Of a stretch of DNA of 64,000 nt, positions 37,377 to 38,716 are shown one piece after another; position 1 is the stretch's first letter; the number at the start of each line of letters is the position of its first letter. Below the pieces are notes generated by a model that searched no databases, was not told where the DNA came from, and was given only the letters and a program-made list of their open reading frames with translations. The translations under genes and the position numbers were made by a program. Origin of the DNA: Escherichia phage JS98; sequence record NC_010105.1. One strand, written 5' to 3'.

Positions 37377-37384
37377 TATTTATA
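37377..37384 (-). promoter_or_regulatory. late promoter TATAAATA
   Basis: Minus-strand TATAAATAG about 30 nt upstream of the 36731-37348 ATG. Confidence 0.55.
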
Positions 37385-37385
37385 C

Positions 37386-37412
37386 AAAAAGGCCCAACCT
37401 TTCGGAAGGGCC
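37386..37412 (-). terminator. rho-independent terminator (GGCCC...GGGCC stem followed by T-run)
   Basis: Minus-strand GGCCCTTCCGAAAGGTTGGGCCTTTTTGTATA right after stop of 37418-37972. Confidence 0.6.
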
Positions 37413-37972: not shown

Positions 37973-37998
37973 ATTATTTCCTAAGTTAGTTTACTGTA

Positions 37999-38006
37999 TA
38001 TTTATA
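37999..38006 (-). promoter_or_regulatory. late promoter TATAAATA
   Basis: Minus-strand TATAAATATACAGTAAACTAACTTAGGAAATAATATG upstream of 37418-37972. Confidence 0.55.
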
Positions 38007-38035
38007 CAAAAAAGGCCCAACCTTTCGGAAGGGCC
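38007..38035 (-). terminator. rho-independent terminator closing the tRNA/small-RNA transcription unit
   Basis: Same GGCCCTTCCGAAAGGTTGGGCC hairpin plus T-run as at 37386-37412. Confidence 0.6.
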
Positions 38036-38040
38036 TTTAA

Positions 38041-38205
38041 CCTAGGGTAACCTTGTCGGGGTTCCACCTGCTAGGCAAGTGTTCTGTGCGCCGTTTCAGC
38101 TGTGAGATAAGGGACTTTAAGAGGAACTCATGTACTCCTTAAAGTCGGGTCTTATTCAGGGAACTTCAGTCCGACGACTTACCGGTAGCGACCCGGTTTC
38201 TTGTT
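38041..38205 (-). ncRNA. candidate structured small RNA downstream of the tRNA cluster
   Basis: Non-coding interval between tRNA-Arg and the terminator with a 9-bp inverted repeat (GACTTTAAG...CTTAAAGTC); no cloverleaf found. Confidence 0.25.
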
Positions 38206-38281
38206 TGGTCGAGACAGTAGGGATCGAACCTACGACCTACGGTTTAGAAGACCGTTGCTCTTCCTTCTGAGCTATGCCTCG
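38206..38281 (-). tRNA. tRNA-Arg (anticodon UCU)
   Basis: Hand-folded cloverleaf: acceptor CGAGGCA/TGTCTCG, D-arm GCTC..GAGC, anticodon loop CTTCTAA, T-arm GTAGG-TTCGATC-CCTAC, encoded CCA. Confidence 0.7.
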
Positions 38282-38285
38282 TATT

Positions 38286-38360
38286 TGGCGGACATGCATG
38301 GATTCGAACCATGGACCAATTGATTAACAGTCAACTGCTCTACCGCTGAGCTACACATCC
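38286..38360 (-). tRNA. tRNA-Asn (anticodon GUU)
   Basis: Hand-folded: acceptor GGATGTG/CATGTCC (two G-U pairs), D-arm GCTC..GAGC, anticodon loop CTGTTAA, T-arm CATGG-TTCGAAT-CCATG, encoded CCA. Confidence 0.65.
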
Positions 38361-38364
38361 AAAT

Positions 38365-38438
38365 TGGTGGCCCTGGGTGGAATCGAACCACCATCCAGCG
38401 ATTATGAGTCGCTCGCTTGACCGTCCAGCTACAGGGCC
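38365..38438 (-). tRNA. tRNA with CAU anticodon (Ile-lysidine type or Met)
   Basis: Hand-folded: acceptor GGCCCTG/CAGGGCC, anticodon stem AGCGA/TCGCT with loop CTCATAA, T-arm GGTGG-TTCGATT-CCACC, encoded CCA; short D-stem. Confidence 0.6.
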
Positions 38439-38443
38439 TTAAT

Positions 38444-38716
38444 TTAAATTACAAATCCAGCAGGAGCATTATCGTCTTTAGCCATGTGCTGAATTGTATG
38501 ATAAGTCATTTCTTCAGGAGCAACCAGATAAGCCGCAGCATTAACTAGTGGAATTATTTTTGGTTTAGCGAATGTGCTATCGGCAATTGCCATAAAGGGC
38601 TCGCCGTCGGTCTCAACTTCGCCAAATTGGCATTCATATGAAATAGAACAACGTTTAGTAGTTGTTGTCTTGGTTTCTGGGTCATAAAAAGCTAATTTTA
38701 ATACTAACATAAACAC
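38444..38716 (-). CDS. hypothetical protein (90 aa)
   Basis: Intact ORF just upstream of tRNAs. Confidence 0.4.
   Translation of the reverse strand: MFMLVLKLAFYDPETKTTTTKRCSISYECQFGEVETDGEPFMAIADSTFAKPKIIPLVNAAAYLVAPEEMTYHTIQHMAKDDNAPAGFVI

Follow-up and report, generated by a model that had tools for sequence, protein, structure and literature searches.

Escherichia phage JS98 carries, at the end of its tRNA operon, an unannotated member of the rnaD RNA family of phage T4. The operon lies in the 64,000-nucleotide (nt) stretch of the JS98 genome (NC_010105.1) that was analyzed, hereafter the window, to which all coordinates refer; it is read on the minus strand in the order small open reading frame (ORF), tRNA(CAU), tRNA-Asn(GUU), tRNA-Arg(UCU), 121-nt rnaD ortholog, 43-nt trailer, and intrinsic terminator (Table 1). 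The locus belongs to the rnaD family by sequence, position, and structure, and a second small RNA gene, rnaC, has been lost from its usual place after rnaD. We hold the overall explanation given here, which covers the operon order, the rnaD ortholog, the loss of rnaC, and the inferred processing and tRNA roles, with good confidence.

Downstream of tRNA-Arg, the initial stretch of approximately 121 nt can be aligned over its entire length to rnaD as annotated in RB7 (locus L001, positions 1507-1627) and to its T4 counterpart (L002, 2506-2624). Over its full length, the window's rnaD is approximately 78 to 82% identical to T4 rnaD (as annotated in RB7, RB68, RB6, and T2L), and blastn matches of the sequence downstream of tRNA-Arg coincide with the features annotated as rnaD in RB68, RB7, RB6, and T2L. 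It occupies the same strand and the same position after tRNA-Arg(UCU), beginning 1 nt past the CCA of that tRNA, in agreement with RB7. A covariance model constructed from close homologs (model R1, described below) and searched against the whole window returned a single match, at 38204-38084, which extends over the full length of the model (116.8 bits; E value of 3e-26). We identify these 121 nt as the ortholog of T4 rnaD, the gene for the “species 2” or “species II” RNA; it is unannotated in the GenBank records of Dhakavirus.

A first-pass annotation of the sequence had described the 165 nt between tRNA-Arg and the terminator (38041-38205) as a structured, noncoding tail, giving rise to a small stable RNA cotranscribed with the tRNAs. 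The orthology with rnaD, as judged by sequence, position, strand, and model R1, supports such an RNA, and 38041-38205 contains no minus-strand ORF of 25 or more amino acids (aa) and only two plus-strand ORFs, of 29 and 46 aa; the tail is, however, composed of two units, the 121-nt rnaD and the 43-nt trailer, rather than of one RNA. The 9-bp inverted repeat singled out in the tail is present and forms the stem of the rnaD apical hairpin, and, of the checks that had been proposed, the Rfam search of 38041-38205 yielded no family and folding of its 121-nt part recovered the rnaD fold. In T4, RNAC and RNAD are small RNAs of unknown role that are transcribed from the tRNA region (PMC3014915) and have been detected as late RNAs in infected cells (PMC9697503). 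Since such a product is known for T4, we infer that JS98 would likewise produce a discrete, stable RNA of approximately 120 nt.

Table 1. Features of the JS98 tRNA-rnaD operon and rnaD copies detected in Vequintavirinae
Feature	Position	Strand	Basis or description
90-aa ORF (phrog_14864)	38444-38716	minus	Ends 5 nt upstream of the first tRNA; JS10 has a hypothetical protein there
tRNA(CAU)	38365-38438	minus	ARAGORN, labeled Met; Rfam tRNA, 62.6 bits
tRNA-Asn (GUU)	38286-38360	minus	ARAGORN; Rfam tRNA, 71 bits, E value of 1.7e-13
tRNA-Arg (UCU), AGA reader	38206-38281	minus	ARAGORN; Rfam tRNA, 69.2 bits
rnaD ortholog (“species 2”/“species II” RNA), 121 nt	38084-38204	minus	Alignment to RB7/T4 rnaD; model R1; minimum free energy fold
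P1 hairpin of rnaD	38181-38197	minus	5-bp stem ACCGG/CCGGU, 7-nt loop GUCGCUA
P2 5' strand of rnaD, GUCGUCG	38172-38178	minus	Pairs with 38086-38093
UCCCUG motif of rnaD	38157-38162	minus	CCC forms an unpaired bulge between P3 and P4; invariant in all homologs (alignment A5)
Apical hairpin P6 of rnaD	38113-38146	minus	Stem is the 9-bp inverted repeat
P2 3' strand of rnaD, CGGCGCAC, with one bulged C	38086-38093	minus	RNAalifold, 38-sequence and MAFFT-only alignments
Conserved trailer, 43 nt	38041-38083	minus	Homologous to the T4/RB7 segment between rnaC and the terminator (~45 nt)
Intrinsic terminator of the tRNA-rnaD operon	38005-38040	minus	GGCCCUUCC-GAAA-GGUUGGGCC followed by U6; homologous to the T4/RB7 terminator
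Terminator copies	37377-37412 and 37990-38040	minus	37 nt at 97% identity
rnaD of UPEC06 (Vequintavirinae)	L049, 1106-1281		Model R1
rnaD of W70 (Vequintavirinae)	L050, 1106-1281		Model R1
rnaD of CR9 (Vequintavirinae)	L051, 1159-1259		Model R1

Fold and conservation of rnaD

RNAalifold, applied to an alignment of 30 distinct close homologs collected from IMG/VR, metagenomes, and GenBank phages (alignment A4), resolves rnaD into a 5' hairpin (P1), a long rod (P2 to P5), and an apical hairpin (P6). In this alignment, 92.6% of the cells are paired, versus 32 to 54% when pairing partners are slid. Model R1 was built from these 30 sequences and used to assemble a model-based alignment of 38 sequences that adds more distant members (alignment A5), in which 93.9% of cells are paired (33 to 50% in slid controls), 17 of 34 pairs have changed on both sides, and none of 500 shuffles reaches the observed value on any of five measures. 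The P1 hairpin has compensatory double changes at all five of its pairs across the 38 homologs, with 99.5% of its cells paired. The minimum free energy fold of the window's 121 nt taken alone is identical to the consensus structure.

Several points temper confidence in this fold. An alignment made with a covariance model is biased toward that model's own structure; as an independent check, a MAFFT-only alignment of 17 diverse members was submitted to RNAalifold, and P2 to P5 emerged again, 8 of the 16 pairs showing compensation. The core of P2 (CGUCG/CGGCG) is almost invariant, which puts it beyond covariation testing. The closing pair of this helix switches from G-C to C-G in two distant homologs, and 4 of the 38 homologs, all from distant groups, have the outer two pairs of P2 gapped or unpaired. 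Neither the 121 nt nor the 165 nt is remarkable in thermodynamic stability (z-scores of -1.25 and -0.51, respectively), and since folding z-scores of -0.5 to -1.8 are not convincing alone, the case for structure is comparative rather than thermodynamic. The inverted repeat (38113-38121 pairing with 38138-38146) is by itself only mildly unusual, a 9-bp repeat appearing in 95 of 5,000 shuffles of the tail (~2%). On the strength of covariation, however, the rod-shaped fold of rnaD is supported.

Conservation is distributed unevenly along this rod. The near-invariant segments of the basal part are AAG-CGUCGG, UCCCUG, UCACA, and ACGGCGCA, and the elements that are invariant or nearly so in all 38 sequences read, from the 5' end, gAA, AAG, CGUCgg, UCCCUG, UcAcA, and acGGCGCa. 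The apical hairpin P6 exists in at least four unrelated sequence classes, each of them self-complementary: a T4 type, an RB7 type, the Dhaka type of the window, and a T2/Gaprivervirus type. The apical hairpin of rnaD is freely replaceable, and the basal part is almost invariant. The comparison with T4 illustrates both features: the helices P1 to P5 and the invariant motifs are common to the two RNAs, whereas the apical hairpins are wholly different (GACUUUAAGG...CCUCUUAAAGUC in the window and GCGUUAAUAA...UUAUUGAUGC in T4). The two also differ at the 3' end, which is CAG in the window and CCA in T4, and in what follows it, the trailer directly in the window but a spacer and rnaC in T4. Directly following GCGCA, T4 and RB7 have CCA, the window has CAG, and other homologs have CCG, CCU, or CCC; because only T4 and RB7 have it, an encoded CCA is not a feature of the rnaD family.

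Two more specific structural assignments were considered and rejected. A tRNA-like rnaD, with an acceptor-like stem and a 3' CCA, fails on the restriction of CCA to T4 and RB7, the lack of a T-arm, and the silence of ARAGORN and Rfam, and inspection of the UCCCUG/UCACA internal loop found no fit to a K-turn or other named motif.

Individual positions and loops show further regularities. The P3 pair 38165/38098 (columns 40 and 111 of alignment A4) is U-A in T4 and most other homologs and A-U in the window and in six others, which differ in apical hairpin class. A-A does not occur, and U-U is found in 2 of the 30 A4 sequences; this is a clean compensatory pair in otherwise invariant flanks. The rnaD copies of Moonvirus, Karamvirus, and Kanagawavirus have a short apical hairpin (L044, 549-651; L045, 461-562; L047, 2417-2518; L053, 601-700; L043, 1163-1262), whose loop is conserved in KM16 and Karamvirus as AGUUCCCUCAAYGAUAAC, an echo of the invariant UUCCCUG bulge. 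The same apical loop is present in the rV5-like and CR9 copies, and the tip of the Gaprivervirus/T2 type is similar (AGUUCCUCCCAC).

Range of rnaD and loss of rnaC

By blastn, rnaD is found in 733 GenBank phage records of Tequatrovirus, Mosigvirus, Dhakavirus, and Gaprivervirus. Model R1 adds divergent copies in Moonvirus KM16 (E value of 1e-8) and Merlin (2e-8), copies in Karamvirus (KaAlpha and CC31) and Kanagawavirus IME523 (0.003), and a weak match in Jiaodavirus KpV477 (0.018). It also detects rnaD outside the T4-like phages, in the Vequintavirinae, with E values between 2e-20 and 2e-12: in the rV5-like coliphages UPEC06 and W70 (E value of about 1e-19), where the basal core is nearly the same as that of T4, and in Cronobacter phage CR9 of the genus Certrevirus (2e-12). 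The family thus spans eight or more T4-like genera, with further members among rV5-like and Certrevirus phages. When IMG/VR and the JGI metagenomes were scanned for exact motifs, each yielded only 9 to 12 loci, all of them from T4-like phages, and the GenBank phage records proved far richer.

In every case detected, rnaD is embedded in a tRNA array and has a tRNA at its side, but which tRNA adjoins it varies: T-even and Dhaka phages have tRNA-Arg there, Moonvirus, Karamvirus, and Jiaodavirus have tRNA-Asn, rV5-like phages have tRNA(CAU), and CR9 has both tRNA-Lys and tRNA-Asn, its rnaD lying 63 nt after the former and 6 nt before the latter. In KM16, it sits between tRNA-Asn and tRNA-Asp with 2-nt spacers. 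The tRNA(CAU) that abuts rnaD in UPEC06 and W70 is 93% identical to that of the window, and this resemblance indicates that a tRNA(CAU)-rnaD module has been exchanged horizontally between two unrelated groups of myoviruses.

Some records depart from the simple arrangement or describe it differently. Mosigvirus and some Tequatrovirus phages (L028 to L033, locus positions 61-405) have a conserved ORF of approximately 114 aa between tRNA-Arg and rnaD, the stop codon of which lies inside the 5' leader of rnaD (…TAAGAA…). Many GenBank records place short “hypothetical protein” coding sequences (CDSs) directly over rnaD, and these are probably misannotations. The rnaD of PV654520 (“Pseudomonas phage vB_PSGBLB0006”; L037) is identical to that of a metagenome locus (L018) and one base removed from that of T4, and its flanking tRNA-Arg and rnaC are also of the T4 type; given that rnaD and its flanks are T4-like, the Pseudomonas host label of this record looks doubtful.

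Searches for relatives beyond phages gave no matches. Neither the window's rnaD nor its KM16 homolog matched any of the 4,227 Rfam covariance models at E values up to 10, and T4 rnaD and rnaC matched nothing beyond noise at E values up to 1. A relaxed Rfam search of the region listed, apart from the tRNAs, only plus-strand or tRNA-overlapping noise (for example, Plastid-ycf2 and YrlA), far below gathering scores. No match to rnaD was found by blastn in 5,426 complete E. coli genomes at E values up to 1, and there is accordingly no sequence-level evidence in those genomes that rnaD is a copy of an E. coli RNA.

In T4, RB7, and T2L, the operon partner of rnaD is rnaC (RNA C or “species 1”; 139 nt in T4), which the window lacks at the syntenic site while keeping the trailer and terminator that follow it. 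The alignment to T4 and RB7 passes from GCGCAC directly into the post-rnaC trailer, skipping the spacer of approximately 5 nt and the whole 139-nt rnaC, and T4 rnaC has no significant match anywhere in the 64-kb window (best E value of 0.28). Within the window, rnaC has therefore been cleanly lost from between rnaD and the trailer. A junction lacking rnaC is likewise found at the loci of JS98 (L004) and vB_EcoM_005 (L011), and a relative with the window's class of apical hairpin (L008) still has rnaC. There is no second copy of either rnaD or rnaC in the window, and the terminator is the only part of the tail that is repeated there.

In T4, rnaD is paired with rnaC in a dimeric precursor, a pairing that does not occur here, where rnaC is absent. 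Because other phages also carry rnaD without an adjacent rnaC, we do not treat this pairing as a defining feature of the rnaD family; the two genes occur independently of one another. For its part, rnaC (T4 L002, 2630-2768) is found in 748 phage records, including those of Enterobacter, Salmonella, and Klebsiella phages, and is mostly at least 95% identical among them, far more uniform than rnaD. It, too, is missing from Rfam, and some records call it tRNA-Lys or tRNA-OTHER, owing to its T-arm-like GGGTTCGAATCCCGG.

The tRNAs and the surrounding operon

The region is the tRNA operon of a T4-like coliphage of the JS98/JS10 type (Dhakavirus), and the window shares 99.4% identity with Escherichia phage UP19, 99.0% with IME281, and 98.3% with JS10. 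In these 64 kb, ARAGORN detects three tRNA genes and no more, each of them on the minus strand, and the Rfam tRNA model (RF00005; gathering score of 29 bits) returns these three alone, at 62.6 to 71 bits (E values of 3e-11 to 2e-13). All three encode their CCA and are separated by spacers of 4 nt each (38361-38364 and 38282-38285). This three-tRNA set was already known from publication: a published table (PMC2993671, Table 2) credits JS98 and JS10 with three tRNA genes each, T4 with eight, RB69 with two, and RB49 with none, and the JS98/JS10 set has the same types, order, and context as that of the window, with no substantive difference. In the JS10 record, these tRNAs are entered as Met(CAU), Asn, and Arg, and the tail is left unannotated.

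The first-pass annotation had listed these three tRNAs with their 4-nt spacing, as both programs now do, and had presented them as a reduced version of the T4 set. The count is indeed three versus eight, but the framing is misleading, since the set is not a subset of T4's eight. The closest counterpart is instead the distal end of the cluster of T2L, RB1, RB3, and RB7 (...Thr-Met(CAU)-Tyr-Asn-Arg-rnaD-rnaC), which matches the window's order CAU-Asn-Arg-rnaD, although the window is without the proximal Gln, Leu, Gly, Pro, Ser, and Thr tRNAs and also without Tyr and rnaC (PMC2330249). The window's tRNA(CAU) is 92% identical to that of RB7, its tRNA-Arg is nearly identical to that of RB7, and its tRNA-Asn aligns with RB7 tRNA-Asn and has the identical position in the array. 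That tRNA-Asn lies outside the T4 set, as had been remarked, is true, but in T4 the segB homing-endonuclease region replaces that segment (PMC2330249), so this absence is a peculiarity of T4 rather than of JS98. T4 SegB cleaves preferentially within the gene for tRNA-Asn in phages without segB (PMC2330249). The window has the tRNA-Asn gene (38286-38360) and no segB nearby, and, by analogy, the tRNA region of this phage would probably be cut and replaced upon coinfection with T4.

The tRNA with a CAU anticodon, which ARAGORN labels Met, is probably of the tRNA-Ile2 type, that is, a lysidine-dependent reader of AUA, rather than a tRNA-Met. Its nearest genes in E. coli are annotated by PGAP as tRNA-Ile, and it has in common with them an identical anticodon arm (GCGACTCATAATCGC) and the GGCCCT/AGGGCC of the acceptor stem. 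That stem, GGCCCUG/CAGGGCC, includes C4-G69 and C5-G68, which are determinants for TilS. Features of an initiator are lacking, in that the first pair is G1-C72 and the three consecutive anticodon-stem G-C pairs typical of initiators are not present. Compared to E. coli tRNA-Ile2 itself (the ileX/ileY type, with lysidine-modified CAU), the anticodon arm and acceptor stem are the same and overall identity is 80.5%; the window tRNA(CAU) differs in being a phage gene and in having a shorter D-loop region.

Together with tRNA-Arg(UCU), an Ile2-like tRNA(CAU) would supply decoding of AGA and AUA, codons that are rare in E. coli and commoner in the phage. The 76 window ORFs (39% GC) use AGA at 6.1 and AUA at 8.9 per 1,000 codons, versus approximately 2 and 4, respectively, in E. 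coli K-12, an enrichment that is consistent with classical supplementation of rare codons by phage tRNAs. Counting against this explanation, tRNA-Asn is left unaccounted for by codon supplementation, as Asn codons are common in E. coli; this tRNA belongs to the conserved distal module Met(CAU)-Tyr-Asn-Arg-rnaD-rnaC of T2L, RB1, RB3, and RB7 (PMC2330249). The poor fit of Asn, together with the fact that tRNA-Asn is among the tRNAs most consistently kept beside rnaD across T4-like genera, would favor the idea that the three tRNAs are retained mainly to replace host tRNAs that anticodon nucleases or comparable defenses deplete or cleave in the course of infection, and not to match codon usage. 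We find this doubtful, as AGA and AUA are enriched in the window ORFs and the anticodon loop of the window tRNA-Asn (CUGUUAA) is the same as that of E. coli, offering no obvious change by which it would escape cleavage.

Upstream of the array, the 90-aa ORF (38716-38444) is probably cotranscribed with the tRNAs. A consensus scan reports a weak sigma-70-like site upstream of it, at 38853-38825, although a match of this kind is no proof of function.

At the downstream end, the terminator stem runs from 38038 to 38011, with a GAAA loop and two U-U mismatches, and is followed by a U-run at 38010-38005; when paired strictly, 38011-38018 pairs with 38031-38038 around a 12-nt loop. A consensus terminator scan with loops limited to 3 to 8 nt did not list the operon terminator, for which we assume the 12-nt strict loop to be the cause. 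The trailer and terminator together fold with a z-score of -2.3. The terminator is duplicated approximately 630 bp downstream (37 nt; 97% identity), after a 184-aa ORF (37972-37418). On the transcribed strand, each copy has TATAAATA, the T4 late-promoter consensus, a few bases beyond it or overlapping its last bases (37999-38006 and 37377-37384), and the pair looks like a repeated cassette of terminator and late promoter; over the window as a whole, TATAAATA is not overrepresented (7 found versus 7.4 expected). A plus-strand terminator-like site that the consensus scan also reports, at 38181-38197, is probably spurious, being rnaD P1 read in reverse complement beside the T-rich sequence complementary to the 5' leader.

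Biogenesis and possible roles of rnaD

From the analogy to T4 and the tight packing of the genes, we infer that the tRNA array and rnaD would be transcribed as one precursor, the start of which probably lies upstream of the 90-aa ORF. Host tRNA-processing enzymes (RNase P, RNase E, and exonucleases) would then cut it into the three tRNAs and a stable rnaD of approximately 120 nt, and the trailer and terminator would be trimmed off.

As to what the released RNA might do, our tentative preference is for a stable RNA acting in trans, one whose invariant internal loops, in the basal part, would bind a factor conserved in enterobacteria. This possibility is suggested by the behavior of the unpaired core motifs, which are invariant across two phage groups while the helices covary and the tip is replaceable; by the persistence of rnaD as a recognizable entity in changing genomic contexts; and by its retention in JS98 despite the absence of rnaC and of the other tRNAs of the RB7-type cluster. 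In addition, when a T4-like phage adapted to a semipermissive E. coli, the only convergent mutation was a point mutation in rnaD (PMC12685909), a hint of a host-dependent role, with published coordinates too ambiguous to place the mutation on the fold. Two considerations weigh on the other side. The tRNA region of T4 is nonessential, its deletions being viable on laboratory hosts (PMC2330249), such that any function of rnaD would have to be conditional. Moreover, as JS98 lacks rnaC here together with the A/U-rich spacer, its rnaD could have a 3' end different from that in T4, and the trailer and terminator might remain attached, in an RNA of approximately 200 nt.

The main rival to a trans-acting RNA is a cis-acting precursor element that directs or protects the processing of the neighboring tRNA, by blocking 3' exonucleases or by positioning RNase E or RNase P, with the released piece being inert. 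The viability of the T4 deletions suits this reading, as does the lack of any known partner or target for T4 RNAD (PMC3014915), and rnaD does lie directly beside a tRNA, sometimes with 2-nt spacers, and in T-even and Dhaka phages occupies the array's 3' end. We nevertheless consider it rather unlikely. The neighboring tRNA differs by lineage (Arg, Asn, CAU, or Lys), the Mosigvirus ORF separates rnaD from its tRNA altogether, and the invariance of the unpaired UCCCUG and UCACA across two phage groups, in which helices and tip vary, suggests sequence-specific recognition. It is also to be set against a cis-acting element that the species 2 RNA of T4 accumulates as an abundant stable species.

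It is less probable still that rnaD is a small RNA that base-pairs with host or phage mRNAs through its 5' AAGAA, the P1 loop GUCGCUA, and the UCCCUG bulge. Single-stranded segments are conserved, and the A-rich 5' leader may resemble an Hfq-type A-R-N motif, but the conserved unpaired stretches are just 5 to 7 nt long, short enough to find matches by chance, and the P1 loop is unconserved in the Moonvirus and Karamvirus homologs.

The notion that the tail is merely the decaying, nonfunctional remnant of an rnaC deletion, a long 3' untranslated spacer before the terminator, draws on the loss of rnaC, the replacement of the CCA of T4 rnaD by CAG, and the weak folding z-score; it is scarcely tenable for an RNA that matches model R1 over its full length with every helix intact, all invariant motifs present, and a perfectly paired apical hairpin, the more so as CAG, CCG, or CCU endings also occur in phages that retain rnaC. 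It is very unlikely that the tail conceals a small protein or, in degenerate form, a fourth tRNA or tRNA-like gene, for although T4 rnaC has its T-arm-like GGGTTCGAATCCCGG and is called a tRNA in some records, and several GenBank records have “hypothetical protein” CDSs over rnaD, ARAGORN and Rfam (E values up to 10) are silent for tRNAs in 38041-38205, no minus-strand ORF of 25 or more aa is present there, the homologs differ in length (114, 116, 117, 119, 121, and 123 nt) by amounts that are not multiples of three, and the changes in their helices are compensatory.

The trans-acting reading can be extended from JS98 to the family as a whole. The spread of rnaD over eight or more T4-like genera and into rV5-like and Certrevirus phages, its setting within tRNA arrays, and its invariant core with a replaceable tip are compatible with a family of phage RNAs that would be widespread, would pass horizontally between phages, and would target some conserved component of enterobacteria in trans, a broader proposition that we regard as speculative and on the unlikely side. 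The retention of rnaD in JS98 despite the missing rnaC and RB7-type tRNAs, and the convergent mutation noted above, are in keeping with it as well. Such an RNA could, for example, serve as a decoy for, or inhibit, a host enzyme that binds RNA or an antiphage system linked to tRNA or translation.

For the annotation of JS98 and its relatives, these results mean that the tail of the tRNA operon is rnaD plus a trailer, that rnaC is missing, and that “tRNA-Met” is probably an AUA-reading tRNA-Ile2. A T4 specialist would find nothing unexpected in these points, and the locus is for the most part unremarkable. The species 2 RNA of T4, however, has been assigned no function since its discovery, has no Rfam family, and is often overwritten by “hypothetical protein” CDSs, and the structure of rnaD, its separability from rnaC, and its occurrence in rV5-like phages with a near-identical tRNA(CAU) appear to be absent from Rfam and from the literature searched. 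A covariation-supported secondary structure, a list of invariant nucleotides, and a working covariance model are now available for this RNA. They make rnaD a better-defined target for deletion, pull-down, and structural work, for which a phage that is naturally without rnaC offers a convenient background.

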